Positions 939 through 46,127 are shown, counted from the whole stretch's first letter. The stretch is 63,794 bases of DNA, filler included, from Asterionella formosa (GCA_002256025.1; 15 parts of 15 records of this genome joined end to end with filler, not necessarily neighbours in it); one strand, 5' to 3'. Notes: generated by a model not told the origin, from the sequence alone. Translations and numbers: made by a program.

Positions 939-1279
939 GTTGTTGCTAGAGATGTTGTTTATTGATTTTAGACTATAAATTGCGAAAGGCTTGGCGATGC
1001 TTTAGACTGCTTCTCTGAATTGTTATTCAAAGAATTGTGTGCTTCACCCTTGCACTAATTCACTTCTTTAACCTCGCGTGGTTGCTCTTGTCTTCCCTCG
1101 TCTTAGCTGCCGACTCTTGGTTGTTCGATTCAACTCTGAAAGCTAGAACTTAATAGTCGCGTTGTCGCTATATTAAATTCTCAGCTTCGACTCCTTCGAT
1201 TCGCGTCACGTGGTTTGTATCATCCGGTGCTCGCCTGTTATACTAACTCCATCGCGTCCGTCCTTGTCCGTAATATCAA
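1..1279 (-). mobile_element. 5' part of a tyrosine-recombinase (DIRS order, Ngaro/PAT-like) retrotransposon: repeat A1 (963-1279) followed by ORF1, truncated at the window edge
   Basis: 963-1279 matches 54199-54515 (317 bp, 7 substitutions by eye). That second copy lies inside the B1-A2-B2 terminus downstream of a YR ORF. A minus-strand ATG at 938 follows A1. Confidence 0.85.
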
Positions 1280-1280
1280 G

Positions 1281-1508
1281 TACGGGTAATGGCATTCTAG
1301 TTGACATATACAAGTACCGGTGGTACCAGGTGGTAGGGGCAGTAGGGTACCGTTACGGTACCAGGTACCTGATACAAGGTACCCTGCTACCTGGTACTCT
1401 GGTATCTGGTACCAGGTACTCCGAGTACCACCTGGTAGCCTCCTTGTTCGTCATTTACCTACCGGTACAAGGTACCAATACATAACTACCGGTAGTAAGT
1501 ACCGGTAG
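1281..1508. repeat. Cluster of TA-flanked micro-palindromes (TACCGGTA, TACCAGGTA, TACCTGGTA, TACTCCGAGTA)
   Basis: Read directly, e.g. TA CGG TA CCAGG TA CCTGA TA CAAGG TA ... TA CCTGG TA CTCTGG TA TCTGG TA CCAGG TA CTCCGAG TA. Similar clusters occur upstream of most genes. Confidence 0.9.
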
Positions 1509-1730
1509 CAGACATGGAACATTGTAATAGTTTAGCAATTCATTAGCATGGAGTGCAACTTTAAAAGTGTGCGACAAGGTGGTAGATAAACAAATTACTG
1601 GTACATCTCATAATGAATTCCTCAGGGATGATGACAAATACAACGAAGACAGCAAGCAGAGAAATGTGATGACAAGACAATCGTGATTTCGTAAGACAAG
1701 AACGAGAAGAGAGCCTTCGGTATATCTCCC

Positions 1731-2510
1731 ATGAACAATAATGCATCTTGGTCAATCGCACATTATCCAAGCCACAAGACGACAGCGGAAACTTGCAAGG
1801 AACGAGCGGAATGGCTTCAATTGACGAAACACAAACAGTTCAGTCGATTGTTGTATTCGAACCCTGTCTGTTTCTTAACAACCACCATAGCTGCATCAAC
1901 GTCAAGAGTCTCGTCTCGAAATGCCATGGTGCTTTCTTGGCTTACGGCAACGAACAACGAAGGGCGCTTCATGTTTAGTTTGAACAGAAGGAGGCATACG
2001 GCTTCCATGTTTTGTGAGGAAGGCGTGGAGTTTTGTTTGTCTGTTCCTGTCCAAGGGATGGAGGCCATGATCAAAGAAGTTGGTAGGACTTCAGGGAGAT
2101 TCGGAAGTAAGTTTCAGCATGACTGTCACACGGATCTTTCAGAAGTTATGGAACCTGCGGCAACAACCGATAAGCCAAAGAGCAATCGACAAAAGAAAGC
2201 ATTTGCATCAACTTGCGTGGTAGGGCTCAAGGCTGTTCCATTTGGAAATGATTCATGCAGTGACAACGAATCAGATTTATTTATTATTGATGGTACTGTA
2301 GCACAGCTCAAGTGCAAGGCATATCAAATAATAAAAGAACCACTCGTTGACAACGACCACTACATTGTATTTGCACAAGTTTCAAGCGCATTTGTACTCA
2401 AGAACTACTGGAATCCTGACAAGAATCTCTTTCAACCTCAAGAGTCCGATACTCCCCCCTATCTGACCTTTTTTGGTTCACAAACTTTTGGTTATGTGTA
2501 TGCAAAATAG
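1731..2510 (+). CDS. Flavin reductase-like (FMN-binding split barrel) protein
   Basis: 259-aa intronless ORF. LYSNPVCFLTT, RNAMVLSWLT, FCLSVP, GRTSGR..SKF and C-terminal DHYIVFAQV are typical of the flavin-reductase-like fold. Confidence 0.75.
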   Translation: MNNNASWSIAHYPSHKTTAETCKERAEWLQLTKHKQFSRLLYSNPVCFLTTTIAASTSRVSSRNAMVLSWLTATNNEGRFMFSLNRRRHTASMFCEEGVEFCLSVPVQGMEAMIKEVGRTSGRFGSKFQHDCHTDLSEVMEPAATTDKPKSNRQKKAFASTCVVGLKAVPFGNDSCSDNESDLFIIDGTVAQLKCKAYQIIKEPLVDNDHYIVFAQVSSAFVLKNYWNPDKNLFQPQESDTPPYLTFFGSQTFGYVYAK

Positions 2511-2761
2511 TGTCTTGTAGGATACGTCCTTTTCAAGCACATCTATTCCCTATGCTCTCTCGACTTTTGGGTAAAAACGGCAGTAAAATAAGCAATGCCA
2601 TGCAATTCAATGCTCTGGTGAGAATGAAAATTCTTCAAGGTTCAAGGAAACCCCCAACACTGCAGTGTCGAATCCAAAATTAAATTAATTCATGGTGTCT
2701 AGAACAGCTACATAGAGGAACATGAAACATGATAGATGGCTATAGTTGTCGCAACCTCTCG

Positions 2762-4750
2762 TCAATTATTCATAAGGACGTCATCCTGACTCCACTGGTT
2801 CTTCCCCAATTCGATTCGTATTGTCCTGCTCACGTGAAAGTCATCGGTCTTTCGAAGTATTGGAAATCTATAAAAGTCAGTCTCTATCGATAAAGGTGTG
2901 ATCTTCACCATCCCATATCCATGTTGTTGGCCATCAAAATATCGATAATGACGGTTCATGGTAGAAACAATGTAATTCGCAATCGGGTCCGAAATCGCAG
3001 ATAAAAGACTGCCAGGCTTGAGCAATGATGAAAACTCGCCAAGCTTCTCATCGAGATTACCCCGAGTGCCGCTTCCAGCTATCATTTCGACGCCGTAACG
3101 TTTAAGATCACTTTGAGCTGGCGAGTAGTTAAGAAGGTCCTTCCCACCTGGGTCGTAACGAACGACATCGGCAGCATATGAAAAGTGCATGTCACCTGTG
3201 GCCCAAAAGTTGTTTTGATCCGTTCCTGTTGCATCAAGTTGATCAAAGAGTCTGGTTTCACACTCTGGCTGGCCTTCCCACGTATATTCGTGTGCGTTTA
3301 AGTATGACAGACCACCACTTTTAGGGTTAACAAGGCGGTGCAAGAAAAGTGAACCGAAAACCCATAAAACAATCCAAAAGGTAAGGCAAATAATTCCCAT
3401 GCAGGTGGCCCAGCTAAACTTATTGTGCGAGTAACTGCGAGGATTCATTTCAGTCTGGATGGAATCGTTGAGAGCATCTCCTTCGGGTTTAATTTCGTCT
3501 TCGTCCTCAATGACAAGAACTATTTCTTTTCGTTGTGTGTGAATTATTTCGTAGTGTGCTTGTTTGTGAAAGTGTATGTCGGAACAATAACAAGTTAGAA
3601 GTAACATTGCCAGCAGTATAGTGACCAGAAGACATGGAAATACCATAGCAGAGGAGAGTTTGTTGAGTGTGAAGGGCATGAAAGTTTTGCCTGATCCGAA
3701 GATTCGCCAGTTTACGTCTGTTGCGTTGGCAAGGGCATCATTAAGCCACTGGTGTTGATAATTACCAAGCAGACCGGTGTGGCCACTGAAGGAGTGAGTA
3801 TCAAGCATTATGATATCAACCAAGCCCTTTCCAAATCTGAAGGATCGAAGTGAATTTATAAACAGCTCGCCTTCATCATTTTCTTCAATAGTCACGCGCT
3901 GAGGTACCCACTCGAGTGCAGCTCGCCGACTTCCTGCTGTCGGATCAGCAGAGTATCCAACTAGATCATGATTGTCAAGGGCTACAATCCAGGGATGGCT
4001 GGCTCTAGCTGCTCGATAGTCAGGATCTAATAAGTAAAGATTATGCATCCATCGAAAGCGTTCAATCTCAGTCATATTTGAGCACCGAAGTGACGAAAGG
4101 TGATCGCGAACACTTTCATCGAGATTATCGTCAGCCGTCCCACCAAGCGATGACGACTTGAACCAGCTCCATTCTTCACAGAGTCCATAAGGTACTCGAT
4201 ATAATTCATCTGGGTCGATCTCATTGTAAATGATGTCGCCCAAATGAATGACAACGTCAATATTGCGATCGTTGGCAAGATGCCGATACATATTGAAATA
4301 GCCACTCCAGAGACTTGTACATGACAGAATGGCAGCATTGATTTCAATTGAGGATGTCGACGCTGTTTTTGTTGTTCCTATGACCGAGCGTCGACCATCA
4401 GGACTCTGGAATTGATAGTGGTACGATATCCCTGGTTGTAAGTTGTTGATTACTACTGTCGTGGTGTAGTCTGATCCTTCTGATATAATCGCGTGCCCCG
4501 ATGTAAGAGGCAACTCAAATGATTGATTTTTGTTATTCTTTTCCCAAACAGACCAGCGCACTTGAGGAATGGTCATTTGAGAGACTCGAGTCCAAATTAG
4601 GACACTATCTGCCAACGGATCTGCAGACCCAACTCCATGGAGAAAGGGAGCATGCTCTATGTCTGCTCTCAGATTCAGATCATTGAAATAGGCGCCGCAG
4701 CTTGAAATTGCAAGAAATAAGGTGAAAAGGGCAAATAATGACTGACACAT
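2762..4750 (-). CDS. phoD: Alkaline phosphatase D (PhoD) family, signal peptide plus two internal TM helices
   Basis: 662 aa with a hydrophobic N-terminus. Motifs FLHGVGSADP..DSVLIWTRV, HLGDIIY, DNHD, LDT, TGDMH and HGYGMV. Confidence 0.9.
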   Translation of the reverse strand: MCQSLFALFTLFLAISSCGAYFNDLNLRADIEHAPFLHGVGSADPLADSVLIWTRVSQMTIPQVRWSVWEKNNKNQSFELPLTSGHAIISEGSDYTTTVVINNLQPGISYHYQFQSPDGRRSVIGTTKTASTSSIEINAAILSCTSLWSGYFNMYRHLANDRNIDVVIHLGDIIYNEIDPDELYRVPYGLCEEWSWFKSSSLGGTADDNLDESVRDHLSSLRCSNMTEIERFRWMHNLYLLDPDYRAARASHPWIVALDNHDLVGYSADPTAGSRRAALEWVPQRVTIEENDEGELFINSLRSFRFGKGLVDIIMLDTHSFSGHTGLLGNYQHQWLNDALANATDVNWRIFGSGKTFMPFTLNKLSSAMVFPCLLVTILLAMLLLTCYCSDIHFHKQAHYEIIHTQRKEIVLVIEDEDEIKPEGDALNDSIQTEMNPRSYSHNKFSWATCMGIICLTFWIVLWVFGSLFLHRLVNPKSGGLSYLNAHEYTWEGQPECETRLFDQLDATGTDQNNFWATGDMHFSYAADVVRYDPGGKDLLNYSPAQSDLKRYGVEMIAGSGTRGNLDEKLGEFSSLLKPGSLLSAISDPIANYIVSTMNRHYRYFDGQQHGYGMVKITPLSIETDFYRFPILRKTDDFHVSRTIRIELGKNQWSQDDVLMNN

Positions 4751-5447
4751 GATACTCGTTTGCTGTCAACAATAGTCTCTAGAATGGACCCGTTTTCGTC
4801 TTGGCTTTCTTTCCTTCGTTAATGGTTGCTATACCCGCTATTACTATGTAGTACGTTGTTGTGGAGTGAGAGTGTGTTTACTCGGAGTACACTTTACCGG
4901 TAATTGTTTGTGAAAATACGACATTCTATGTATTTACCAGTTACGACCGGCAGTATGATCCTGATAAATCATTGGTGCAGGCTGCCCTGCCCTGCTTACG
5001 CTCGGTCATTGTCATTTTTTATTCACGCACTTGCGCCTGTTTTGAGTTTACCGCGTTTAGACGAAATAATTAGCATAAAACCTACGTCACCATTAACTCA
5101 TGATATTATCATTCAAGAGAGAATTGATGACGTTCTCTATTTAAGGCCTGCCTGTCCTGCGTCACGTTGTCCATTTCAGCAAAATTGCAGCACCAACTGC
5201 TTGCAGAAGTATTTCATGCAACAGCGACGAAGCAGCAGCACACCAAGCAAAAAGCAATTGTGTAATGTTTTACATGTATGGATCATATTTTGGCTGGTCT
5301 GAATATTTATTATTATTACCTGGCGGTAATACATCATAGCACAATTATTACATATTCCTGAATATACCGGTATTCGAATTGAACATACTCCATATTATCA
5401 AGCTACCATCCCAACTGATTGAGACCCTTCACTTTCCTCCGGCTATC

Positions 5448-6427
5448 ATGACAAGCAAAGATATATTAATACACAGACTCGAAAAACTGCTGGGCTTCGA
5501 CGGTGTTGAAGATATCTTGGAGCATCTTCTAACCATCGAATCGGAGCAGGTGAGCGCCGGGAGTTCGTTGCTTGTGAAGTAACTTTGCTCTGGAGGAAAT
5601 GGTTATTGACAGCAACTTTGCATGCAAGCCGACTAATTCACTTGATTCTATCCCTACATTGCACGGAATAGGATTTATTGGATTATTTGTCACAACTCCT
5701 CGGGAATGATGGAACTGACGTGAAATTGTTTGTAGCTGATGTTGGTCAGTTTAAAAAGGGCGAAACACTTTCACCGATAGAGTTGCCTCTATCAATCGAA
5801 GACTTGCCACCACCGGACCGAAAATTGCAGGATAATTACATAGACAGCAAATCAGTCGCAGCAAAGCCACAGAAAAAGTCTACTGCAGCAACTAAACGAA
5901 TTGTCGGAACAAAGAAACAGCAACCAGTGCCACCGGTAAAGAACCTCTTAACAACGGCACAGAAACCACCGCCGACAAATGAAAGGGAACAAGGGGTGGC
6001 GAAGCTGTCGAAAAATGAAGAAACGACAGAAATACCAGTCAAAAAACATCATCCACCCAAAGGCAAAGCATCGGTTGTTTGCGGTTGCTTTGGTACTTTG
6101 CACGCGCCCTTGACCAACTGCCTTTACTGTGGTCGAATCTCATGTTCACGAGAAGGATATGATTTCTGCGCGTTTTGTGGCTTGTTGGTGGAACGTGTCG
6201 AAGCTAAATCAGGCGATGTGGCAACGCAGCACTTGGAGCGCTTGTTACGATTTGACCGGGACTTTGCTAGACGAACGGTCGTTTTGGACGATCAAGCAGA
6301 CTATTTTAGCAACCAAACGTCGACATGGCTGACAGAGGAGGAACAGTCAGAAGCTGCAAAATCCGAGTCAGATCGCAGAACCGAGCTGCACACTCGAAAA
6401 AAGCAAAGTTTGAACTTAAATTTCTAA
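5448..6427 (+). CDS. TRIP4: Activating signal cointegrator 1-like (zf-C2HC5); exons 5448-5549 and 5672-6427
   Basis: CGCFGTLH...NCLYCGRISC...CAFCG zinc finger, then RLLRFDRDFARRTVVLDDQADYF. The GTGAGC...AG intron 5550-5671 joins the exons in frame. Confidence 0.85.
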
Positions 6428-6453
6428 TTCTACTTTTTGCCATTTACATGTCA

Positions 6454-7118
6454 TCACTTTTTGAAAGCTTCGATCACATCTGGTGGTGCTTGCACAAGCT
6501 CGATCAGAACGCCAGCCCCTCCAATAGGAGCAGCTTCATTTCCTTTAGGATGAATGAAAGTCACATTGTGTCCAGAAGCCCCCTTTCTAATGCCTCCAGG
6601 GGTAAATCGAACTCCTATTTGTTGAAAAATCATTAGTGCCAGAATGCCGCCACGTGTAAGATTTACCGAATTACCGGTACTGCTTACCTTGCCCTTGCAT
6701 CCAGGTAACTGCAGATTCTAGGTCATCTACCCAAAGTCCGATGTGATTGAGAGCGGGAGAATGTACCTGCTCCACTCACATGAGAAGACGTTTCCACAGT
6801 GAATGCGAACCTTCATTTCAACTAACACGAACTCACCTTGGGACTTTTTTCGGGATCAATGGGGGTCATGAGGTCGACTTCCACAGCCATCAACCCTTTT
6901 CCGAGTGATAAAATGTCTTCGTCGACATTTTCCGCTTCACTAACAAAGTTGCTGACTTGGGTCAAGCCAAACGTGTCTCCCCAAAGCTTATTCAACGGCT
7001 CTTTTTCTAGCGCCCCAACAGCGATTTGTTGAAGACCCAATATCTGAAACGGCCTCGATATAGAAGACATACAGCGTCTCCCAATGTATTGAAATACATG
7101 GCGTTGAATCGAAAACAT
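6454..7118 (-). CDS. VOC/glyoxalase-family protein, probable methylmalonyl-CoA epimerase with mitochondrial presequence; exons 7118-6837, 6766-6688, 6614-6454
   Basis: Spliced product [14 protein letters not shown]...ENVDEDIL...VEVDLM...[11 protein letters not shown]...[15 protein letters not shown]...FIHPKG...GVLIELVQ. Two GT-AG introns. Arg-rich N-terminus. Confidence 0.85.
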
Positions 7119-9516
7119 AAGGGAAAGGCCTGATGCTGATGTACTTGGATTTTTCTCTTGACAGGAGTTGTCATAAATATTTTGTTTTTATGATTTTAGT
7201 CGCCAATGTATTAATTATCGGAAAAACACCTGCTACCGGTACTCCGAGTACATGATAGGCGGAATAGTCCATTGAAATGAGAACCCCTCTTTATGATTGT
7301 GTATTGCTTTATGGATGTGATTGCCGGGGTGGTACCTGGTAGCTAGTAGCTACCAGTCCAGTACCAGGTATATCCAAGTTCCCTAGTGAGCGAAGCGAAC
7401 TCCTCATCTGTGCTAAATAGACGAGTACCTGTAATAGACCTACCTGTACATCAATACATTCTTTTCACCATCCCGTAATGGGTAAAATTAAGCCCAACGA
7501 GCAGTTCTCCATTATTTCCCTTTAGGTGTCTACCGGTATTATTTGTCGACTTGGGACATGTCCATACCTTTTTGAACTGACAATATTGGTATATATGTAC
7601 ATGAAAAAACCCATGTTATAAGAGCGTTTACCACTAGTATACATTAGCTATTCGAAAAATTAAACCCGCTTTAACTGGTGTGGGTTTAAGGTTCTTGTAT
7701 TTGAACCCCTGGCTCGAACTAGGGTTTAAAAATAAGTTTCATCATAAAATGAATATGTATATCGCTACTCGGGGCCTTCACCATTGAACTCCCTTTCCAT
7801 ATGCTTGTTAGATACAGTCATTGGTCAAAGAATATCAAAGCTCTCTAGAGTTTTGCAATGCTTCCAATGCAACATGGGCAACAGCATGTTGATTCTTTGA
7901 ACTGCCTCAAAAAAGATTTACTGGAGCTCTATTTCACAGATTGTCATGCACAGCAATGACATTAATAAACATAATGAACAAGAGGAGGGATTCCAGTACT
8001 AACAAACAAGAGGATGCATTGCTACAAAAATTTAACATTTAAAAATTTACGTTGAATGTATATTCAATGTCAGATAGTAAGTAATCTAGATATTTCGATC
8101 ATTAGAGCACAACGACGATATTATCAATCATATCACCAACATAATTTGTGTTATAAAACACACATGCTATAATATTTTATCATTATCAGAGCATGCCCAC
8201 TACTAGTAGTACTGTAATGTCCAAGCCATGTAAAAAGTCTATGTTACATTACACCAGTATTATATATTTTATTCTAAATGAACTTATGCAATAGGTAAAT
8301 AGACTTAAGTGAGAACTTGAATACACCAAATTGGTTACTAATTGAAAGCATGAACTTTACATGTATTGTACCATACTATGACCATTGAGGGTCACTATTA
8401 GATCAGATGAGACTGATTGTTGTAAATTGAGGTGGAACTTGATGATGTTGGTGGCTATTGCGGAAGCTGTTGTAGTAGAGGGCGTGGTAGGTGTGAGTGG
8501 TGGAAAACCAATAACAACAACAGGTGAAGGAGGGAAGTTGGAGCAAACAGATTATTTTTGGGATGACATACTTGGGCTGTACTCACAGCAAATTGAGATA
8601 CAAATGTCTCCTGGTGTAGATTCAGTAAAAATGGATGATATCAGTCTCCTCGTTTGAAGTAGCTAGTTTCAACTCCTGACTATTCTTGGTATCAGGAGTT
8701 GCTGACAAGTGTGCACAAGCATGATTGAAAGTACAGCAACTCAAAAAACTTCCAATTGTAAACAAGTTTACGAAGCGACAGAAATTATGGAAGTGGAGGA
8801 GGGAGGAAGCAATTATGTCAGCAGTTTTTCCATAACACAAAAAACTGTTTTTCTTCGGCAGGAACGCGAAGTTGGGATTAGGGATGTAAGGTGGCTAAAC
8901 TATTTACGAGGGTTGAGCAGCGTAGAGTCAAGGTGGAGTTTTGTTGGTGTAGGTTTGTATGGGATACTAGCCATGACTACCCTGCTACTAGAACTTTGAG
9001 CTGTACCCTTCTTCACTGCCCACCACACTTTAATTGACAAAGTGTTTGAGGCATATATTCCAGATGGAACTGTGACACAGATTGTCAATCAAATGATTTC
9101 TGATCATCACACTAGTGGTCATCCACTACTACTAGGAAATAGTATTCAGATTATAACGTTTACTAGCATGCATGATAATGATATATTAGCTAATTTCATG
9201 GTCTCCATTTTTCTAAATATCATATGGTCCAACTGTCCGACCAGCAGTATATTTATTCTTCCGGTAGCAGCAATGGTATTGTCGCTAACTTTGTCCTCCA
9301 CAGTAGTACCAGTGAATTATTAGCGCTAGCATCAACTACAGGGCGGTTTTACTGTGAGTTTAATTGTTTATGACTATTACATTCCTAGTGATAGTTTTCC
9401 TGTAGTAAAAACAAAACAAACAAGAAGTATTCTTGAAAACAATTATTCTTTCTTCTATACAAAGAAGAAAGCTTGTATCTAATTCTTTAAAAATTGATCG
9501 AAATTAATTTTGTGAT

Positions 9517-9745
9517 CAGGCCAACACTAAACGTGAACCAAACCACAAACATAACCATAAATAAAGGATGTAATTTTGATTAGGTTTTGGTTTCTGTCAG
9601 ACTGACAGAATAACAATGCTAATGGTTTCAGGGAAAACCTAAATGTTGTCAACCACCCATCGACTGTGATGTAGGATGACATAAATAAAATAAATTAACT
9701 TTTAAAAATGAAATATGAACATTCCTATTCAGGAATTAGAAAGCT
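9517..9745 (+). repeat. Dispersed repeat, probable TE terminal region; inverted homolog at ~50230-50440
   Basis: 9631-9673 matches the reverse complement of 50293-50335 at 39/43 nt, and similarity extends on both sides. Confidence 0.7.
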
Positions 9746-12157: not shown

Positions 12158-13208
12158 TGCTTCCCCCTTTGATTTTGCTCTTGCCGTAAACTTGGAGAGG
12201 AACAGGGCGTGCCTGATGGGCGAGTGGGTTCATTCGATGTGGCGGATTTGACAAGTAATCATCAAACCAGCGGACTGATCTTCGGTCGTCAATGCCAGCA
12301 GCAGGGAGTGTTATAACCGGTTTGTATACTTGACTCATACAACTCCGGCTTTGCCCCACCAGCAATGGCTGACCTATCATATAGAAGAATATGTAGAAAC
12401 AAAGGAGCACGTTTTTATCAGCATGCTGGTACCTGGTACCAGGTACGTATAATAGGTGGCCATATTTGGTCTATGTTTTTTAATTTCGCTCTCGTCGTAG
12501 GGAGACCATACACATGTACTATGTACCTGGTACTGTAGGTACCAGGTACAGGTAAGAAGAGATCGAGTGTCGTTGAATCGGGACCAGCGAGGCCGGAGGC
12601 GAAACAAAACTAACTGGTTCCAACAGTAGCTATGCACCGGTTGGACGAAGATTATGAATGTACCGGTATGTCGGTATATATTTAGGGGTAGGGTACATTT
12701 ATGATGTGGTCCGGGTTCGGAGTACGCCATAGGATGATGGCACGTCGGACTATCTCCACGTACACATCAACAGGTATGCACAGTACGGACGAAATTTTTT
12801 TTCCCCTTTTCAGATCTTAGTACTCAACGTGCTACTATCTACCGTGCATAAAGTGCATGAAAGCGTACCGGTAAATACAGCGGGTGTCTCGAACACGGTT
12901 TTTGGTACCTGGTACTGGACATACTAAGCAAAAAAGAAGGTGCGATTTATGATCATGGCACATGATTCCATGGTATCAAATCAACCGTTGCATGCACTTG
13001 TGGCCTGCCCGCCTCCCATGTCATCAAGTATGTATGTAGAAGGAAGCAGGAAGTCGGAATAAGTGTCAAACATCCTCGCACCCACCACAAATTCAAAGTC
13101 GCCGTGGCATCATTGCCACTAATTCCACAATTTATTTGTTCGACAGCGTAATACGGCATATCTGCAACCGATTGTCTTTTCGTGTTCTGATAATTGCTTG
13201 TGTCTAAG

Positions 13209-14656
13209 ATGTGTGAAGGCTCTACTGCATTATCGGAGGCTCGAGCGGCGATTCTTGACCTCATTGGAAAGAACCCTCGTGGTCACCTAGACGCCACTAT
13301 TCGAGCCGAGTTTTCGAAGCTTCTCCATGAGTATGCTGCAATGGACTTTAGCGATCCCTCTGACGCTGTCTTTGCTATCGGAGCCTCGATCTACGGTGTT
13401 GAAATAAAAATGAGTGACACTAGTAAACATGCTGCAGCTGCGCCAGTGATTGTTGACTTTGCCTACATGAAGCAGTTCATGAAGGATGTCTTTCTTTCTT
13501 ATGATGTGCCAGAAGAACGCGCCGACATTTGTTCTAACGTGCTAATTGAATCAGACCGTAGAGGGATCGACTCTCATGGTCTAGGTAGGCTCAAACCAAT
13601 TTATTGCGACCGTATTGACGAGGGCATTTTGTTTGCCAGCAAACCAATTGATATTGTCAAGGAAACGGAAACCACTGCTCTCGTCGATGGAAATCTAGGG
13701 TTAGGACTTTACATTGGTCCCCATTGCATGCAGATAGCCATTGATAAAGCAAAGAAATATGGTGTTGGCTTTGTCGCGTGCCAAAATTCCACCCACTACG
13801 GTATTGCTGGATACTACGCCACAATGGCAAGTGAGAATGGTTGTATTGGTTTCTCCGGGACCAATGCCCGCCCATCTATTGCGCCAACATTTGGTGTGGA
13901 ACCCATGTTAGGCACCAATCCATTATGCTTTGGTATTCCATCGAACGATGAGTTCCCCTTTGTCATTGACTGTGCCACCTCGATAAACCAGCGTGGTAAA
14001 ATTGAACGATATGCGCGTGAGGGACTCCCAACACCAAGGGGTGCTGTCGTTGATGATCAGGGTATTGAACGCACTGATACAGATGGAATTCTCCGTGACA
14101 TGGTTCTTGGGAAGTGCTGCCTTACTCCAGTTGGTGGAGCCGGGGACAAGTTAGGAGGGTACAAAGGATACGGATGGGCTACAACGGTTGAACTACTGTG
14201 TACAGCGTTCCAGTCCGGCCCTTTCGGTGAGGATGTGTGTGGGATCGATCGAGAAACAGGCAAGTCGAAGCCCATGCCCCTCGGTCATTTCTTTTTGGCG
14301 ATTGACATTGAAGCACTGTGTCCTCTTCCTGTCTTCAAAGAGAATGTCAGTCATCTCCTAAAGGCACTAAGAGAAAGCAAGAAATCACCTGCTGGACCTG
14401 GTAGGATATGGACTGCTGGAGAACCTGAGAGTAAGTCCAAATGATTCAATTTGTTATGGTGAACTGATTGTTTATTTGATTCCTCGTCCTTATGTTGTGT
14501 ATTTTTTATTTTTGATCAGACGATGCACGTGTTCAGCGTGATGCTCAGGGCGGAATGGTTGTTCCCTTGTCTCTACAGAAAGATATGCAAGCCCTCCTCG
14601 ACAGTCGTCCAGGGCTTAAAGAAAAATACGGGAAGCTACCATTTGTTGGATACTAA
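13209..14656 (+). CDS. Ldh_2 family (malate/L-lactate/L-sulfolactate dehydrogenase type 2) oxidoreductase; exons 13209-14430 and 14520-14656
   Basis: Motifs RGIDSHG, NSTHYGIAGYY, GTNPLCFG, D.ATS, GYKGYG and GHFFLAID. The GTAAGT...CAG intron restores the C-terminus. Confidence 0.9.
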
Positions 14657-15256
14657 AGAATTCGGTGATGCCCAGGAACTTGGATTGTTACAAGTTGAAT
14701 TTCTGCGATATTAAGTCACTCTCACGAGTTACTTCATCCCGGCATTTGTTCCCAGTAGTGTTTCATTGCGTCCACAGTCATGGCGGTCATATTTACTAAA
14801 AAAACACCATGACATTATACTGGAATAAAATGCAAGTCTATAGTTGATAGAGATACATAGAGTGGCATCAAATGAAGCACATTTTTATGGAGACTTAGCA
14901 TGAATAGTGAGAGGAGCACACTTTGTTCAAGCCAGTACAGTTGAAAGGGTTCACTTGCTTAGCTCCCATCTCCTCATTCCTATATAAGTTTCGTTTGCAA
15001 AATTTGTCCTAGGTATTTTAGTACACGGCACATGTGGAGTTGAGAAGAATTAATGTGTGATGTTCTCCATGCAATCCCGAGGTGGGTACATCTGTAGTCC
15101 CAGCCAGTATACCTCGATTATATGTACTCCCTCATATAGCTAATCCCTTTTGTGGTTACCAATTACTCCTACCACATTGTCTAGTTACTTGCACGAGCTA
15201 TGCTATGGAACAGGGGTACCAGTACCAGGTCCGATATGCAAATGTACATTTTACTA

Positions 15257-16560
15257 CAGTGAAACCTCCCTATAGGAAACACCCTCTACTATATAAGATA
15301 CAGGTATGGAGATCATCACAGAATAATGGAGATGGTTTTGTAATCATCACGCAAATGGATATCCAATCAGTAGACCCATCCGACAAAGCAAAGTTTTGTC
15401 AATTTCCAAAGCATTCAAAACATATCATAATTTTAAGGCACCTTATGGCAGGCTTGAAAAATGGAAGAAAAGACAGAATGTCAACAAATCCTATGCTTTT
15501 GTGGAGAGCCTGGTGGGAATGTATGAATTGGTAAGACTGAAGAATGGAAAGCTTTATTGGCTATTTTGTTTGATGGGTACTAGTATACTCCAGCTGACAT
15601 TCTCAACATGGATGAGATTGCATTCTTTTATCATGCTCTCCCCAATTCAATGCTCAATCAAGTATTGAAATCATGCAAAGGAGGAAAATTAGCAAAGGAT
15701 CAAGTTATAGTTGCTTTTACACCACCCAATGCAGCTGGGGGAGAACTACAGCTGCTCTTAGTACTAACTGGGAAATCCAAGAAGCCTCATTTTTTTCAAA
15801 ACATTGATTTGAGCCGCCTCAGAGTTGTCTACAAATCTAGTAGCAAAGTGACTAATCCTATTTTCAATGAGTATCTATTGGATCTGAATGCACATAAGAT
15901 CTCTCAGAACAGAAAGATTATTTTATTCTTAGACAATGTCCCTGTCCACATTGTTGTTGATGAGGGTGCAAGCTCAAGGCTAATACATGTAAAGGTTCAA
16001 TTCTTCCCTCCAAACTTAGCAAGTGTGTTTTGCAACCGTTGAATTCTAGAATCATTAGAAGCCTAAAAGCTCTTTCCCGTAAGCATCAAGTTTTGCAGTT
16101 GTTATTACATTAGTAGCATTATTTGTTATTAGGTACCTTAAGACTACTCAAGTGTTCGTAGGGTACTAGCCCACTTGGCGCTTCCTGGAATTGACAGCCT
16201 AGGTTGTTTAAAATTCTTAACCTTCTGAGTATCAAACCGACAAATATGGTGACTTAAGTAAAGAGCTGCTGTAAGGCAGGGAAAATTTTGCAAGAAGTTA
16301 CAATGCATTGAAATGGGAAAATATGCAGCAGATCTAGAAGCAAAGAAATTGCAGATAATTGATGCAATGAAATTTACAGCTATATTGTAGGGAATTGTTA
16401 CAACTGAAACAATTCCAAAATCCTTTAAAAGACATGGTTTTGATAAAGTACGTGATGAAGAATGTGTATTAGTACCAGAGGAAATTGAAAATGAAGAGGA
16501 GGGCGGAGCTGATGGACAAGAGAGGAGGCTTGGAGAAGACAATATTCATTATGTACAAGA
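15257..16560 (+). mobile_element. Degenerate pogo/Tigger (CENP-B HTH + DDE_1) DNA transposon
   Basis: TA|CAGTGAAACCTCCCTATA TIR-like start at 15257. Frameshifted FKAPYGRLEKWKKR, NMDEIAFFY..LP, GKSKKP, IILFLDNVPVH, FFPPN...LQPL. No right TIR found. Confidence 0.85.
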
Positions 16561-16844
16561 TGGTATTGGTAAATATGCAATCCCATGTGCTGAATCTTTA
16601 ATTGCAAATTTGGTTTCCCAATATTTTGATGAAGGTGGTATTATGGCCACATTGTTAGCGATGAATTTGTGTCCAATAAGGGAGCTGGCGATGACCAGAC
16701 GCGGTGTGTACCGGTACGTGCTCGCTCATCATCATACAATAGTAAGTGCCAGGTACAAGTACTTGGTACACAGCACTGTCGAACAAAAACTCCCATCATT
16801 TTGAAAAATAAAACCAGGTCCCGTTGCATTACATTGTCCTCACC

Positions 16845-17219
16845 ATGCCTCCGATGAAGATTCCTGGCCCTGTGGCGGCTAAGGGTCTCTACCGAAAGCT
16901 GCTTCGTTCTCACGCAAAGTACCTGCCGACAGAAATGAGATTGTTGGGCGATCACTATGTCAAGAGTGAATTCAGATTACACACAAAGGTCACCAAACAT
17001 GACACGCTTGATATGTTTTACACGGAATGGTTAGGATACTTGAATGCACTAGAACGTGCAGCACGAACGCGAGAGGCAGCGCAGGCAGGCAATCTTGGAG
17101 GTGCAAATCCATTCCAAATTGGGAGCAATATTCCAACAGGGTTTGAGTTTAACGATGAACAGAAGGCACAATTGGAGCTGTTGAAAGAAGAAGCCCAAAA
17201 ATTGTGCAAGAAGAAATGA
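16845..17219 (+). CDS. SDHAF3: Succinate dehydrogenase assembly factor 3 (ACN9/Sdh7, LYR family)
   Basis: LYRKLLRSHAKYLP.EMRLLGDHYVKSEFRLH...F..EW..Y signature. Confidence 0.85.
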   Translation: MPPMKIPGPVAAKGLYRKLLRSHAKYLPTEMRLLGDHYVKSEFRLHTKVTKHDTLDMFYTEWLGYLNALERAARTREAAQAGNLGGANPFQIGSNIPTGFEFNDEQKAQLELLKEEAQKLCKKK

Positions 17220-17454
17220 GGACTCATAATATGATTGTTAGTCACACTTGGAAACGCGTATGTCCGCCTATGATGAATGATCAGAAATGCTATGTTTGGA
17301 TTTTCAGTGACTTTTTTCATGTCACCCGTCGAAACCTTCATGATTAGTCAATCACTGCGGTTGCTTCACATAAATGTAGTATGAGCATTCCAGAATTAGA
17401 GATCAGTTCATATGAATTGTGAAAAATAAATTAATTTATATCAGTCTTATTCTA

Positions 17455-18993: not shown

Positions 18994-19618
18994 GATTTGA
19001 TTTTTATGGATTCATCTATGGATGGTTAACATGTGATTACAGGAAGGCTCAGTCGTCTGATGAAATTGTTGCAACGAAGGCAAGACACCAATGGAAGCGT
19101 TTTGAACAAGAATCGAAGTGTTTATTCATTGACAACTATCGGTAGTAGCCACTTAGGTTTATGCATTGTCGTTGCAAGGCATAAACTAGTCTACCAGTAC
19201 ATATCGTATGTATACATGCTGATATGGTTGCAATAAACAATATACCGGTATTTTGTCGTTAACCTAATACTGGTAAACGGGAAGGGATAGCTGTATCTTC
19301 ATTGTCGGGCAAATCATGCATGGGTCCGGTACGCACCGGTAAATAATAGAACCGCCAGTGGAACGATGTTTAAGTATTACCTTTTGATAGATCTATATCG
19401 TTAGACAAAGAAGACTTTAGAAAGAGATGCTCGTTTCTCTTTCCATTTCTATATTCTTATTGTGAGTTTACTAATCTAGTTTAAGGTTGTTCTGTTTGAA
19501 CAAACAAACAAACTATTCTCCAAATGCTGTTTGCATTTCTAGAAACTTACAATCATAGATAGACCCATGTCTATCTCACACTTACTGATCATAGGTATTT
19601 AACCATGATCATTCATTT

Positions 19619-21200: not shown

Positions 21201-21828
21201 GTGACAGGGACATTTCGAGTCTAAATACATCACTTTTTCGAATTTATGTCTAAAGTGATGTATTTATGCTTCTTTTGGGGGAATTTATTTGGGTCAAACC
21301 AAAGTTTATGTGTTCTAAAACAAGATTGATTCTAATTATCAAATAATTTTATGATCAAACCAATAATTTTCTGAGTTTGCAACAATATTTTTTTACCGAC
21401 TAGCCCTCATAACGGGGGTAAAATGGCGAAATTACATCGCTTCACGGCAAAATTATGCTGGTCTCACCACATAATTAAATAAAGAGTACCCGTTAAAAAC
21501 TGTAAGCCACCGTTATTTTACTCCATCATCTGACTGAAAATATTTAAGCAATTTATCAATCGAAACTGATGCAAGGACGAAGAGTATGTTAGACGATGCA
21601 CTCTACTCAACGAATAAGCAATCAATTTTGATTCAGTGTAAAGAGCCATGAAGATTAAATTTTTTCAGACGAGTCATTAAGATTATTGCATATCGTTGGC
21701 TGACAGTGCATATTTTTCCGATTGCTGCTTATGCTGACAAGCTACTATGGAGTGACACGTGATGTGGCTGTCTGGTAACAATACACCCTTTGTCACAAGA
21801 ATAGCTATTTGAGGCATAAACTTTGAAA

Positions 21829-22046
21829 CTGTGTGGTAATTTAGTACCTTAAACTAAGTTTGTTCCTTATCTCCTTGTTTTCTGAATCTGTGTGGTAATT
21901 TAGTACCTTAAACTAAGTTTGTTCCTTATCTCCTTGCTTTCTGAATCTGTTTGGTAATTTAAGTACCTTAAACTAAGTTTGTTCCTTATCTCCTTGTTTT
22001 CTGAATCTGTGCGGTAATTTAGTACCTTAAACTAAATTTTTCCTTA
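21829..22046. repeat. Tandem repeat, ~3.7 x 59-60 bp
   Basis: Unit CTGTGTGGTAATTTAGTACCTTAAACTAAGTTTGTTCCTTATCTCCTTGTTTTCTGAAT starts at 21829, 21888, 21947 and 22007. Confidence 0.95.
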
Positions 22047-22154
22047 CATCTAAGACGCGAAATACGCCACTTTTCGAAATTTCGTCTACGTATGAGTGTT
22101 AATTATGTGGTACTTCACATGCATTAATGCCACTCTTCACGTAAAAAAGATTAC

Positions 22155-22242
22155 TTTTAACGGTTTCATGTGAAGTTTTAACTGTTTCATGTGAAGTTTT
22201 AACGGTTTCATGTGAAGTTTTAACTGTTTCATGTGAAGTTTT
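22155..22242. repeat. Tandem repeat, 4 x 21 bp with alternating variants
   Basis: TTTTAAC(G/T)GTTTCATGTGAAG at 22155, 22176, 22197 and 22218; variant order G,T,G,T. Confidence 0.95.
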
Positions 22243-22323: not shown

Positions 22324-22423
22324 NNNNNNNNNNNNNNNNNNNNNNNNNNNNNNNNNNNNNNNNNNNNTTAATTAATTAANNNNNNNNNNNNNNNNNNNNN
22401 NNNNNNNNNNNNNNNNNNNNNNN
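22324..22423. other. Artificial contig linker N44-TTAATTAATTAA-N44 (13 more between 44744 and 62431)
   Basis: Identical 100-nt spacers carrying six-frame stops start at 22324, 44744, 46210, 47676, 49142, 50607, 52072, 53537, 55008, 56473, 57938, 59403, 60868 and 62332. Confidence 0.98.
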
Positions 22424-25400: not shown

Positions 25401-27305
25401 GATGTAGAATCAGCTCACTTTTGCTACATGGTATGCGGTTGTCCTGTGACATCGTTGCTTCACCCTTCGTCAAGGATGTCATTGGTTGGATGCGACCACT
25501 TTGTCCCTCTAGATGCATCTTTGATGACCTCTGAAGGAGTCTCTGGGTTTCAACGGACCGAAGCTTATGAATGGACAAAGCGGCAAGGAAATCAAAAAGC
25601 TGTCATTCCCAGCCTTCAGCCATTGAAATTGATTTATGCAATGCGCCTTGCTGACTCGGGATTTACTGAGCTAGCCGCCCAGTATGTCAATAGCATCCGA
25701 AAATCTTCTCAGATTCTTCCACTTTCAACCAATGATCCATTTACAATTCGTGGCGGCCCTTTAACAGCTTGGGCTTGTTCCGAACAATACATCTTTATCA
25801 ATGCATTGACAGAGTTGGAAAACCGATTAATCTTTCAAAAGAATCCTTGTTTTATAGTAGGAAGCATCGGACAAGTGAAACAAGTTGTGTCCGCACCAGT
25901 GTCAGCTCCATTATTGCAAACCATTCAGAACCCACAAGAAGTTGTGAGTCCAATGCAGAGGCGAAAGAGTAAGAAACCCCTGTTAGACAAGTCAAGCACT
26001 TCATCGGGAAAATCTTTGGAAAGGGGAAGTGTAAAGAAGGCAGCATTGGTGCACACATCAGCTGAAAAGCTTACTCAGCCAAAGAGATCTAAGAATGTAT
26101 CTATGCCAAGTCCTCCTGTTGTGGCGACTCAGGCGCATTCCTCGCCTCCCGTGATGTCGGGCTCGATCGATGCACATCAATCAGAATCAGAAGTTCTTCA
26201 GACCCCTGTTTCTCAGCCACTAACTCCTATTGCCGTGCCTCAAATCTCCTTGTCACAATCAGTCCTCTCTACGATGCTTCCTTCGCACGACGAAAGTGAT
26301 ATGAATATGAGTTTCCTTTCGGCTAAATCAAGCATTCTGGACAACTCGCCTGTGTCAAAAATTGCAAATGATTTGACAATTGTATCTACATCTGTTGGTA
26401 CAAACCACAGTTTGTCAAACTCAATATCTTCTTCTGGACAAATCAAACATACCCAGTTTGCAAACACATATTCATCAGGTCAACGAAGTGATTTGACAAT
26501 TGTAGCTACATCAGTTGGTACAAACCACAGTTTGCCAAACACGATATCTTCTACTGGACAAATCAAACATGCCCAGTTTGCAAACACATTTTCATCAGGT
26601 CAACAAATTGTGAAGTCACTGCCTCCGGATAGTGGTTTGAAACCACCCATGGTCATGCCACCAAACTCGGTTCGACTGCCCTTTGCTGAGCCAAAAGAAG
26701 TTGGTACAGAGCATTCAAATGATGCGCCTGCCAGAGCAAAACCAAAGTCTCTTGAGAAGAGCCACATCATGCCATCACCTAAATCAGCCCCTGCCCAATT
26801 GACTAGCACACCCACTTCGGCCCAAAGAAACAGTATCTGGGGAATGGGTCTAAAATCAAGGGTGATCAATTGGCTAAACCCAGATGCAACCACCGCTGAT
26901 ATTGGTGAGTCAATGAAAGCTTACTATGACAAAGAACGAAAGGTATGGGTCTTCCCTGGGGAGGATCCTGAGGAAATAGCAAAGCCTGTTGGACCTCCTC
27001 CAATGGCTATGTCGACTCCAACAAGAGATGTCAGTAGCTCCACACAAAGTGATGACAACTCCTTGGACCCGTTAGCTGCCATGATGGCTCCTCCAAAACG
27101 AGCCCCTTCCTCACTTAATCGACCAATGAGTACTTCTCATCCTGTACCAATGCAAGGAATGATGATGCCTCCTGGAGCCAGTACTCTTAATGTTTCTGCT
27201 TTATCCAAACAAGCAGGAATACAGTCGCCTCCTTTCATGATTTTTACACCAAGCACAGTGAACAAATCAAAGAATGAAGAGAATAATATGGAGGAAAAAA
27301 AGTAG
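22424..27305 (+). CDS. SEC16: Sec16 (COPII ER-exit-site scaffold) with N-terminal WW-domain array; 5' incomplete
   Basis: Six full WW repeats (LPxGW...D..SG..YY...TTWExP) plus a partial one at the contig start. Sec16 core FGFGGKL, LGDRL...AHFCY, RTEAYEW, LQPLKLIYA.RLAD.G; C-terminal YYDKERKVWV. Confidence 0.88.
26369..26604 (+). repeat. In-frame 120-bp (40-aa) tandem duplication inside Sec16
   Basis: DLTIV(S/A)TSVGTNHSL...QFANT(Y/F)SSGQ occurs twice, with units at 26369 and 26489. Confidence 0.9.
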
Positions 27306-27527: not shown

Positions 27528-27781
27528 AAGGTTACATTGTCATCATTTTGCCTCATAACGATGACTCAATATTTTAGTTTTTAATGAGGTTTTTTCAATC
27601 TTTCATTTTTCACCCAATTAATACACTATTGTTGACACCAAAGAAATTCATTCCAAGGTTACATTGTCATCATTTTGCCTCATAAGGATGACTCAATATT
27701 TTAGTTTTTAATGAGGTTTTTTCAATCTTTCATTTTTCACCCAATTAATACACTGTTATTGACACCAAAGAAATTCATTCC
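27528..27781. repeat. Tandem duplication, 2 x 127 bp
   Basis: AAGGTTACATTGTCATC...GAAATTCATTCC at 27528 and 27655, near-identical. Confidence 0.95.
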
Positions 27782-28211
27782 ACAATATTATTAGTTCATT
27801 ATTGATTTCTAATCATTTTTTATTATTCAATTATGTGTTTTATTTCTATAATATTTGTTTCTAATGATACTCTATCAATATTTGCTTCGTTTAGTGCCAA
27901 ATACAACAATTATGATTTGTTTGGCTAAAGTAAAAATTCCTTACGATTGTTGCTTGACAGCCTACTGACAATCACTACTTGTTGCTTCTTGTATTTAAGA
28001 CATAAATAGATGTCAGCATCTATATTACATGTATGTGCTTTCTCACATAATTTTTGTTTGTTCATTCTTCCTGCTCATCATTACCAACATCAACGCTTTC
28101 CTCAGCATATCAACCACTGCAGCAGCAGGAGGAGGTAGAACTATAGGGTGGACCATAGCAGCAAGAACATCCAGTGTTGGGCGTCTGTGAATGAAAAACA
28201 TGTTAGGCCAA

Positions 28212-30270: not shown

Positions 30271-30718
30271 TTTGACCATAATCATCAACTTTAAAAAACT
30301 CACATCTTTTGAATTAGGTAGCTTCTTTCCAAATTAAGCAGACCTAATTTAAGCTGCAAGCATCATCTACATTTAGTTGCTAATGTGCTTGATTATAGTT
30401 GTGTGTGAAATTTGACTAAAATATTTTGAGTCGAAACATGGGGTAAATTCTATTATATGACTCCTACCTAGGTCTTAGGTGGTACCGGTACCAGTACTAC
30501 GGACTGTGTATGGTATGTACGTAAGATCAGTTACCGATATACCGGTAGCCTACCGGTAGTATTGTTCTTGTTGTCAGGTGCATGATAAAAAAAAGTTATT
30601 TCCATCCGCTCCCCGTTGTTATACGCGTAGGTAGTTGTGACTGCTGGTTGTTCGAGAGGCAATCATAGTAGTAATAGCACCGGTAGTGCTGCAGCCCACC
30701 TCTTCCTCCATCATAGCC

Positions 30719-41094: not shown

Positions 41095-41899
41095 GGTTCA
41101 ACGGGAGAGAGAGTCTGATGACTGATGTGCTTATTATGTACGCGGAGTTCTGCCGATACAAATTTATTATGAAATTATGATGTGGTCCCTCGAAAAAGCA
41201 AATATTTCACAAGATTTTTGTTCGTGATGGATTCGTGTAAATACATTAATTGCCGATGGGAAGTGCAACACTTCGAGCAGTATTTTTTTTAGCATAATGG
41301 TGTCACCAATTGCCTTTGCTGCAATCTGTGTAAAATGTCGATATATATATTCATATATGGATAAACATGAACATATACAATCATGTGTTTGATGTTGAGC
41401 AGCTGATTATATTTGTTTCCACGAAAATGTATTCTAAAATAATCGATTCTGCTAGAATTGACATCATACAGGTCTCCTATGTACCAGCGGATAGTTTCAG
41501 TACCTGTAGATAGTTTCAGTACATGTACTCAGTACCCTTGGTACCAGGTACCAGGTACCAGGTACCACCAGGAAACTGCTTTGAACCTTCTATTTCACTA
41601 CGGTACATTCAATCGATTAGTATGTACGACTAATACTGAAATATTCATTTCTATCACCTTACCAGGTACCAGTTGCTCCAGATGTTCACGAGAGGTGGAG
41701 GATTATGATTGGACGAACGATTCAACCAGATTCCATCAACAACTATCTTATATATATGAATGTTTATAATGATGCATTTATCCATTATTGAGGTTCAAAG
41801 CAGTTTATAAAAATATTTTAATAATGGAGAATTAATTTATGTTCTACATCGAAGACAGATTACAACATTTCATAATTATTATAATGAAATCACACAAAA

Positions 41900-44743: not shown

Positions 44744-45200
44744 NNNNNNNNNNNNNNNNNNNNNNNNNNNNNNNNNNNNNNNNNNNNTTAATTAATTAAN
44801 NNNNNNNNNNNNNNNNNNNNNNNNNNNNNNNNNNNNNNNNNNNTCTAGAGAACAGGTGCCTGCTGATGTGGTGAGAACTGACCGTTCGAAGCGCCATGGT
44901 TGTTGTCAAGGAGGTAGAAGTGAACAGGATCTGCTGAAAAATTAAGCAAGACCACACACACCAGTTAGTATACTTGGGGACGAAACATACGGGGTGAATG
45001 TTTCTTAGGAGTGGAGGACATGTCTTGCATCGGCGTGTATTTTCGATGTCCTTCTGCTATCCTGGTATGGTCCCAGGTACCAGGTACTGGAATGCTTGCC
45101 AAATATGCAAAAAAAAGAATGGGTGGGGGTACATATATACCAGGTACTATTACCCAGTGCCGCTATATGTTCTACCATGCAGGACCGAAAGAGTTGAGTA

Positions 45201-45852
45201 CCTGTGCAAGTTGCGGTAATTTTGGTCAATCTAAAGATTTAGCTGTCTTTATCCCAGATTAAAATGTTTGTTTAATTAATTAAGCAAAATTACCGTAATT
45301 TGCTGTTACCAGGTGCCAGCCAGTCCCTTAACCTACCGTTGGCAATTTCCTGTAAAATGAGAAATTTAGCAATTTTTCTTTCTAGCAAAAACCGTCTTCT
45401 ACTTTAACTCCGAGATATGTACCGTGCTTTTATACCTTAGTCTACCTGCCACTAAAAGGACAAATAATCGTGTGTACGGGTCTGTCACGGCTATGTATGT
45501 ATCGGGTATGCACAGACTATAGCTACCGGTATATACAATACCGGCATACCGGAATGCTGTTCTGTATATACCAGCAAGTTGCGGTAATTTTGCTGAATCT
45601 AAAGATTTAGCTTGTTTAAATCCCAGATTAAAATGTTAGTGAAAGCAAAATGAACGCAACTCGCAGTATCAGCAACCTGTTGCCCTGGTGCTAGTGTGCC
45701 CCTACATTGTGCTTAGCTATCGTAGCAGGAACTGGTATGGAACTACCGGTACTTGCCTGCAAGTTGCGAAAAGTTTGCTGAACTAAAGATTTAGCTTTAT
45801 TTTTATAGAATATTAAATTTTTTATTTAAGCAAAATGACCGCAAGTTGCTGG
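45201..45852. mobile_element. Three copies of a ~100-bp MITE (45201-45306, 45571-45666, 45756-45852) with ~23-bp TIRs, consensus TA|CCAGCAAGTTGCGGTAATTTTGCT...AGCAAAATKACCGCAACTTGCTGG|TA
   Basis: Shared interior CTAAAGATTTAGC. Imperfect TIRs in each copy, with TA at most ends. Confidence 0.8.
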
Positions 45853-46127
45853 TACTTTGGTACCTGTAACTCCTACCAGTAACCAGCACCCGGTAACCAG
45901 TACCGTTATATGTATTGTAAAGTGAGCTGGTGCCGCTTGCTCGGTGGGTTGCTTCTGTGAATCCATTGCTTTGTGCTCTGTCGAACGGAATTCTTTCCAT
46001 CGCCAGACCGACGACGGCCAAACAAAGATTCGTTGCCTTGCATCATCACCCCATATATGTCGTCCAGCCAGCAACAGCGCACAATGTGTCATTTTTCGCT
46101 TCCGCCTAAATCAAAAATACATTGACC

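Follow-up and report, generated by a model that had tools for sequence, protein, structure and literature searches.

TA-bounded palindromic units massed in intergenic DNA of Asterionella formosa are candidate transposon excision scars

The intergenic DNA of a 63,794-nt stretch from Asterionella formosa (GCA_002256025.1; hereafter the window) contains many short palindromic units in which a core that starts with C and ends with G is held between two TA dinucleotides. At 1281–1508, a patch of 228 bp is a degenerate tiling of such TA-delimited cores. We consider it probable, at roughly 0.6, that the TA-CC(W)GG-TA units (W, A or T) are scars left by the excision of Tc1/mariner/pogo-type cut-and-paste transposons that target TA. 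The original prediction read the patch in this way, and further supposed that the arrays grow by repeated insertion and excision and that the footprints account for a major part of regulatory sequence. An origin as scars is supported by cores that match the ends of a resident element family, by a transposase remnant and by two insertion/deletion (indel) cases, whereas neither growth exclusively by re-insertion nor the claim of a major part has held.

Core counts were taken on N-free segments only, and the background was obtained from dinucleotide-preserving shuffles. Among cores of 2–8 nt between two TAs, 176 have the C...G form, compared to 57.96 ± 7.45 expected (200 shuffles, maximum 79), which confirms the predicted enrichment of this vocabulary. 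The cores CCGG (25 versus 0.36 expected), CCAGG (22 versus 0.16) and CCTGG (11 versus 0.20) dominate, and their 58 TA-flanked occurrences are referred to here as canonical units. When the 16 possible palindromes of the form TA-XY(N)rc(XY)-TA are compared, XY is CC in 60 cases and the runner-up, CA, is found in 7. The same words lead the over-represented hexamers of the window under an order-1 Markov model (GGTACC, CCGGTA and ACCGGT, z up to 22), with GGTACC at the top (98 occurrences on both strands, that is 49 sites, versus 14.1 expected; z = 22). Runs of C...G cores are mostly singletons (113 of 139), the remainder being made of two (19 runs), three (5), four (1) or six cores (1). Furthermore, 9 of the 58 canonical units are fully isolated, with neither GGTA nor TACC within 25 bp. 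Isolated units and singleton runs of this kind are not predicted by tandem slippage.

A likely source of the cores is found at 45201–45852, where three copies of an element of about 100 bp make up the sole TA-flanked family with terminal inverted repeats (TIRs) definable in the window. These are MITEs (miniature inverted-repeat transposable elements) of the Tc1/mariner type: short, non-coding, multi-copy, with TIRs and a TA duplication. They are 96–106 bp long and AT-rich inside, with inverted ends of ~20 nt that match at 14 of 16 positions between different copies, and their interiors are without GGTACC units. The copies start CCWGCAAGTTGCGG and end ...CWGG adjoining TA; the inverted ends open with CCWG(T)GCAAGTTGCGG, five of the six lying right next to a TA. 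Copy 1 (45201–45306, plus strand) has TA on both sides, the left end CCTGTGCAAGTTGCGG and a degenerate right TIR. Copy 2 (45571–45666, plus strand) also has TA on both sides, with the left end CCAGCAAGTTGCGG and a right end, ...CGCAACTCGCAG, that is one G short. Copy 3 (45756–45852, plus strand) has the ends CCTGCAAGTTGCG and CGCAAGTTGCTGG and a TA on the right. Other genomic copies were reached through public sequencing runs that carry the window sequence, four in number and labeled as algae or freshwater metagenomes, among them X2, X6, and X7. According to the loose-end consensus at 5185 in X2 and X7, the right end of these other copies reads ...GCAACTTGCAGG and then TA, and at the MITE segment 5150–5185 the contigs part ways on either side, 8–20 of them in each run. 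The 35-bp piece at 5150–5185 is identical to an internal and subterminal MITE segment, and its other copies run on into the CCGCAACTTGCAGG end. A MITE-like end at 43732 (CCAGCAAGTTTGAC) had no partner that could be found.

Fusion of the MITE ends as CC+GG, CCA+GG or CC+TGG yields exactly the three dominant cores. It had been proposed that the enriched cores should equal left-end plus right-end fusions of TA-specific TIR families, and this is what we find, for one TA-flanked family with three copies and one anomalous flank. Because the end fusions equal the enriched cores, the comparison with TIR termini fails to refute a scar origin. If a terminus-compatible core is defined as a prefix of CCWGG followed by a suffix of CCWGG, the window contains 104 of them compared to 14.4 ± 3.5 in 100 shuffles (maximum 24), their bounding by TA being partly a matter of construction, since the search itself was TA-delimited. 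When the overhangs of MITE copies 2 and 3 are brought together, the third letter of one end would pair with that of the other (CCA...AGG and CCT...TGG), and a microhomology of one base may thus give rise to CCAGG and CCTGG.

The window also retains a transposase of a suitable superfamily. A frameshifted pogo/Tc5-type remnant, belonging to the TA-targeting Tc1/mariner superfamily, lies at 15327–16039 on the plus strand and comprises an HTH_Tnp_Tc5 domain (E = 2.8e-5, 15327–15665) and a DDE_1 domain (E = 4.9e-11, 15584–16039). Full-length relatives of 465–520 aa have the same domains; those of ~515–520 aa share up to 59% identity with the remnant, while a relative of 293 aa reaches 72%. The remnant is multi-copy, with a depth of 4–6 times single copy in bins 15342–16675 of the population runs. 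It is plausible that this pogo-like enzyme mobilizes the MITEs of the window.

Several smaller observations concern the surroundings of the remnant. The sequence CCAGGTCC occurs four times in the window (15225, 14401 on the minus strand, 16815, and 43734) and resembles a GGTACC unit minus its A (GGTCC); related GGACC/GGTCC variants are found at 45070, 47520, and 53489. The direct similarity of the copies at 15225 and 16815 was considered as a pair of remnant ends and rejected as too short. Just left of the remnant, at 14804–15188, X2 (and partly X6 and X7) has deletions of 2, 25, 4, and 7 bp relative to the reference, the 4-bp deletion leaving a single CCAG where the reference has CCAG CCAG.

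Two indels at a TA provide more direct cases. The first is found in a satellite-like repeat at 53908–54780, in which the order is unit A (271 bp), 20 bp, unit B (317 bp, 54199–54515), and again unit A. The two A copies (53908–54178 and 54516–54780) are 97.4% identical over 271 columns and differ by a sole indel of 6 bp, AGTAAACG in copy 2 versus AGTACCGGTAAACG in copy 1, so that copy 1 has TACCGGTA at 54090–54097 and copy 2 the matching unoccupied TA at 54698–54699. This indel is CCGG+TA at a TA, and no neighboring repeat is able to slip there. The paralogue check behind this result covered 21 local self-matches, of which four pairs were aligned and the others were tandem or coding repeats. 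Besides the A units, the aligned pairs were the B units 963–1279/54199–54515 (97.8% identity), 49812–50394/9572–10137 (~71%) and 51068–51140/8120–8192 (~82%); the last two showed no clean unit indel. The second case lies at an isolated TACCGGTA (7531–7538), directly before which X2 has an extra 7 bp (TACCGGG) while X6 agrees with the reference. The insert is carried at a depth of 172.6 of 172.6 in X2 and 0 of 5.85 in X6, and it is the sole indel in a 3.3-kb X2 contig (5159–8472) that has one other difference, a single-nucleotide polymorphism (SNP). Over ~8.4 kb (1254–9660), the X2 contigs that were read closely show one unit-type indel versus two SNPs relative to the reference. Skips of 50–300 bp in run contigs (8479–8780 and others) had non-intron ends and short anchors, and were treated as contigs from paralogous loci.

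In the mechanism that we propose, elements with inverted repeats CCWG...CWGG would integrate at a TA, which is duplicated in the process. Cleavage at transposon ends is staggered by 2–3 nt, and on exit such cuts would leave two or three end letters on each flank, which end-joining would convert to TA-CC+GG-TA, TA-CCA+GG-TA or TA-CC+TGG-TA. Every event would gain 6–7 bp and one new TA. Repeated events at tolerant intergenic spots could then lead to chains and to degenerate patches such as that at 1281–1508, helped by imprecise repair, by point mutations acquired afterwards and by a degree of local duplication or slippage of the 7-bp unit, and selection would exclude the units from coding sequence. 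A stagger of 2–3 nt in this particular system, the direction of both indels and growth of the arrays mainly by re-insertion are presumed in this scheme.

The patch at 1281–1508 sits between a high-copy repeat, the B unit that ends at 1279, and an open reading frame (ORF) for a flavin-reductase-like protein (1695–2510). Cutting it at each TA gives 32 pieces, 28 of which are 2–8 nt long; 16 of these 28 are of the C...G form and 6 are canonical, and GGTACC is present at seven sites in the 228 bp. Other cores include CAAGG (twice), CTCTGG, CCGGTGG, CCCTGC and more. The patch is single-copy and gap-free: a single X2 contig of 3,926 bp at single-copy depth covers 1254–5179 with one difference and no gaps, and an X7 contig covers 1376–2046. 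In its other copies the B unit is followed by unit A and not by a GGTACC patch, and bins 1–1334 have depths in the population runs that are tens of times that of a single copy.

A number of observations weigh against a scar origin. At the level of the termini, these are defined by one TIR family with three diverged copies on one small contig, and a match of "CC" alone has a chance of about 1 in 16. The left flank of MITE copy 3 (45750–45755) reads TACTTG rather than TA, with an extra CTTG; its right flank reads TACTTTG, and the TACTTG on the left might reflect repair or a duplication longer than TA. Neither an inverted-repeat search of 14300–17300 nor a search for TA+C...G+TA pairs whose ends agree at 13 or more of 16 positions revealed convincing TIRs for the pogo-like remnant, and for this reason the link from transposase to MITE to scar is one that we infer. 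Within the patch at 1281–1508, only 9 of the 32 pieces are terminus-compatible, and the other cores need imprecise repair or subsequent mutation. Differing in this from known footprints, the cores of the window are 4–5 nt long (2+2 or 2+3), with no 3+3 form, the fusion CCWWGG having zero occurrences between TAs in the window. The two indel cases carry their own qualifications: that in unit A is unpolarized, a single case and one between paralogues rather than alleles, while that at 7530 is likewise unpolarized, may have arisen by deletion between a pair of 6-bp TACCGG repeats, and has an extra core, CCGGG, that is not a clean fusion of prefix and suffix. No orthologous site was observed that is occupied by the element in one genome and present in the excised state, as a scar, in a second. 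Finally, the expectation that intergenic indels would mainly be a core plus TA was not borne out, as the unit type accounts for 1 among the 12 listed of 35 strain indels, the other listed ones being changes of 1–25 bp, several of them in 14804–15188.

Further points of this kind come from the arrays, and they also favor a different explanation, namely that the units are a cryptic mini- or microsatellite. A chance unit of 6–7 bp (GGTACC or GGTACCW) would have spread and decayed by slippage or unequal exchange with no transposon involved, and would look palindromic because it is self-complementary. Tandem Repeats Finder (TRF) reports stretches of period 7 at 1357–1419 (GGTACCT, 8.7 copies, 72% matches), 41540–41567 (GGTACCA, four perfect copies) and 53000–53048 (GTACCAG, 6.7 copies). 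The CCWGG units are concentrated in arrays, isolated units being 8 CCGG to 1 CCWGG and non-isolated units 17 to 32 (Fisher p = 0.0035). The W letter is the same in 5 of 7 adjacent pairs, which is not significant, and at 23 of 96 edges of canonical runs the outer TA follows a GG, versus a background of 7.5%, an excess that a GGTACC-based repeat predicts likewise. The 7530 polymorphism, if a slippage deletion, would fit as well. On the other hand, the stretches of period 6–7 are very short and heterogeneous (TRF scores 52–60, matches 72–100%, 4–8.7 copies), with mixed unit types in irregular order, and the scatter of the nine isolated units and 113 singleton cores over unrelated contexts is unlike a minisatellite. 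So is the presence of units at otherwise naive TA sites, such as the alternation of TA and TA-CCGG-TA in a non-repetitive context within unit A. No change in array length between populations was seen in the arrays that contigs span, with zero gaps at 1281–1508 (X2), 1376–1508 (X7), 7230–7450 (X2 and X7), and 12425–12517 (X7), though these are few arrays at low divergence. The identity of the cores with the resident MITE termini would also be left unexplained, and we regard this alternative as unlikely for the units as a whole.

The periodic stretches nevertheless qualify how scar arrays would be assembled. Because CCWGG is concentrated in arrays and some period-7 runs are perfect, local duplication or slippage probably contributes; the data suggest that 7-bp units also multiply in this way, or that scars are preferred targets. 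The original prediction that the arrays are built by repeated insertion and excision is therefore supported as to the origin of the scars, and not as to growth by re-insertion alone. Its description of the tiling as "not a fixed-period satellite" is correct for most cores, which are singletons, and incorrect for the short period-7 arrays.

The clusters listed in that prediction are real: 50 of the 58 canonical units fall inside its 13 intervals, which total 3,826 bp. Apart from 1281–1508, these include 7230–7450 (five compatible cores, three of them canonical), 12425–12550, which lies between divergently oriented ORFs, 12865–12920, and 16705–16770, immediately right of the pogo-like remnant. 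The cluster at 19240–19340 is sparse, with one canonical unit. That at 30480–30560 is immediately upstream of a BEACH-domain ORF (30641–38992), and that at 41480–41670 contains the perfect (GGTACCA)x4. Unit chains are interspersed with the three MITE copies at 45060–45910, on one unplaced contig (44844–46209). The cluster at 46540–47550, also on an unplaced contig, is loose, and that at 48720–48960 is weak, with no canonical units and two GGTACC. The densest is found on another unplaced contig at 52750–53320 (10 canonical units and nine GGTACC), and the last, 53805–53886, lies immediately left of repeat unit A.

The neighborhood of several clusters raises the possibility that they are fragments of transposable element (TE) ends, that is, decayed terminal or subterminal pieces, or nested and truncated copies, rich in GGTACC-like motifs bound by transposase. 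Patches adjoin the B unit at 963–1279, the A unit at 53908, and the MITEs at 45201–45852. The 21-mer array at 12426–12446 recurs at many loci, with 24 loose ends at 12426 in X2 and 11 in X6. There is precedent for subterminal repeats bound by a pogo-like transposase in the passages on Lemi1/Emigrant of one report (PMC1636448). However, the recovery of 1254–5179 as one contig at single-copy depth places the patch at 1281–1508 outside any high-copy element, no TIR pair brackets any patch, the MITE interiors are without GGTACC units, and isolated 8-bp units are too small to count usefully as TE pieces. We therefore find an origin as TE-end fragments rather improbable.

Canonical units are absent from long ORFs (0 of 58 in 23.1 kb) and all 58 lie outside them (38.7 kb). 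The coding mask consisted of 12 ORFs with a Pfam match or at least 250 aa (23,143 bp), and the remaining N-free DNA (38,748 bp) was taken as non-coding. Terminus-compatible units span 631 bp, or ~1.6% of the 38.7 kb of non-coding DNA, a share too small for footprints to be a major part of regulatory sequence, locally dense as the units are. A restriction to non-coding DNA would also be expected if the units were clusters of palindromic transcription-factor sites (TACCGGTA, TACCWGGTA and GGTACC) under selection to regulate neighboring genes, and some clusters are positioned accordingly, with 1281–1508 before the ORF at 1695, 30480–30560 before that at 30641, and 12425–12920 between divergent ORFs. 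In contrast, the density of units is similar in intergenic DNA of the scaffolds and on unplaced repeat contigs. TACCGGTA is found 15 times per 20.8 kb in the former and 10 times per 17.9 kb in the latter, and TACCWGGTA 14 and 19 times. Moreover, the units are gained or lost as 6–7-bp indels at TA, the spacing of half-sites varies and many copies occur close together. Loci of relatives were found by a metagenome scan with the flavin-reductase-like protein encoded next to the patch at 1281–1508; four contigs totaling 22 kb contained neither TACCGGTA nor TACCWGGTA, although these relatives are distant (39–60% amino-acid identity) and their flanks are not alignable to the window. GTAC-core (SBP-type) sites were dropped as an explanation, since isolated TACCGGTA units are often without GTAC. 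Taken together, a set of selected binding sites appears quite improbable. The confinement to non-coding DNA, the similar density in both kinds of contig and the lack of units in the relatives' loci also count in favor of a scar origin. Scars in patches just upstream of genes could still be raw material for promoters.

The construction of the window bears on how its right part is read. Between 44744 and 63794 it is made up of 13 pieces, each ~1,365 bp long, with six-frame stop linkers of the form N44-TTAATTAATTAA-N44 between them, so that neighboring pieces are unrelated and any feature crossing a linker is artificial. The clusters between 45060 and 53886 hence represent five separate unplaced contigs whose adjacency is artificial. 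A further linker of the same type lies at 22324–22423, and there is a gap of 671 N at 28212. GGTACC is a common cloning site and small contigs strung together by linkers make up part of the window, yet an assembly or cloning artifact such as concatenated KpnI-site linkers is refuted by the presence of the sequence in contigs of four independent public runs from different studies, continuous with flanking genes and at single-copy depth.

An interpretation as scars is in line with what is known of TA-targeting transposons. Canonical footprints of Sleeping Beauty are "cag" or "ctg" between TAs in the relevant passages of one report (PMC5224488). Stowaway scars are described in parts of another as a TA, 1–4 TIR letters from each side and a TA, with re-insertion beside an existing scar documented (PMC1925063), and a pogo-superfamily element is stated to leave 0–4 bp (PMC9976928). 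In these passages, footprints of Sleeping Beauty, Stowaway/Osmar, and Passer resemble the units of the window in having two TAs around terminal letters, in being near-palindromic, because the ends of the element are inverted repeats, and in their variable or imprecise outcomes. The features of a footprint are present in the window as TA-bounded cores, cores equal to resident TIR ends, a single-TA alternative state and a transposase of the superfamily. Unlike known footprints, which were described site by site or in assays, the units here are the top over-represented non-coding words, arranged in chains and in patches that reach ~230 bp. The MITEs themselves resemble Stowaway and Emigrant/Lemi1, as far as the passages on these elements go, in being ~100 bp long, AT-rich, non-coding and TA-flanked, with a pogo-like transposase in the same genome (PMC1636448), whereas their TIR is unrelated to any compared, and they are known from three diverged copies plus the ends of other copies. 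In a survey of rice, excisions were a source of small intergenic rearrangements between O. sativa and O. glaberrima, and most left deletions or filler DNA, only 8 of 94 being "perfect"; the passages of that survey on excision describe no build-up of scar arrays, unlike the window (PMC4423477).

A broader reading, which we put forward as tentative, is that pogo/mariner scars form a self-reinforcing, genome-wide class of sequence. The new TA, set in a symmetric GG-TA-CC context, might be reused, so that arrays would arise at hot spots and supply the top intergenic words, with a rate of gain and loss comparable to that of point substitutions. Excision scars are normally regarded as rare, site-by-site curiosities, and their biology is known in kind; it is their scale and arrangement in massed arrays that appear new. 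No description of massed scar arrays was found in the open-access literature searched, where the motif strings matched only primers and unrelated items. If scars can dominate intergenic word statistics, they would amount to a measurable mutational process that makes new sequence, 6–7 bp and a new target per event, as well as a possible way for short tandem repeats to originate and a record of transposon traffic that outlasts the elements themselves. Counts of TA-core-TA units matched to TIR ends would then read out past cut-and-paste activity in microbial eukaryotes. There is also a caution for motif discovery, in that scars could be mistaken for regulatory elements.

A second vocabulary with the same logic is present in the window. 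The palindrome TACTC(C/G)GAGTA occurs at 1417–1427, 4879–4889, and 7240–7250 (three matches versus 0.01 expected in 100 shuffles), and a related ACTCCGGAGT is found at 53847. Its layout is that of the CC(W)GG units, with a TA, end letters, a central ambiguous base, end letters and a TA, and it resembles Stowaway scars quoted in passages of PMC1925063. As a scar, TA-CTC(S)GAG-TA (S, C or G) predicts a second family with ends CTCC...GGAG, for which no matching element was seen in the window. A third and weaker type may be TACATGTA, with six sites versus 1.25 expected.

The window is eukaryotic and intron-poor, with a GC content of ~41% and uninterrupted ORFs whose products include a BEACH protein of 2,783 aa as well as WW/Sec16-like, PhoD, Ldh_2 and BRCT proteins. 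No tRNA genes and no Rfam families at the gathering threshold were detected in it, leaving no RNA explanation for the units. A segment at 19381–19600 is of very high copy number, as in each of the four runs its contig depths sum to ~350 times single copy; TIRs or inverted ends were not detected in it. Unrelated tandem duplications (periods 59, 21, 120, 127, 82, and 202 bp; 93–100% identity) are located at 21824–22242, 26366–26604, 27528–27782, 42523–42686, and 58060–58461. Two telomere-like CCCTAA repeats stand at the extreme end of one small contig (49105–49141), and the last small contigs carry a fragment of a Copia-type retrotransposon with SH3_retrovirus and RVT_2 domains (62433–63792).

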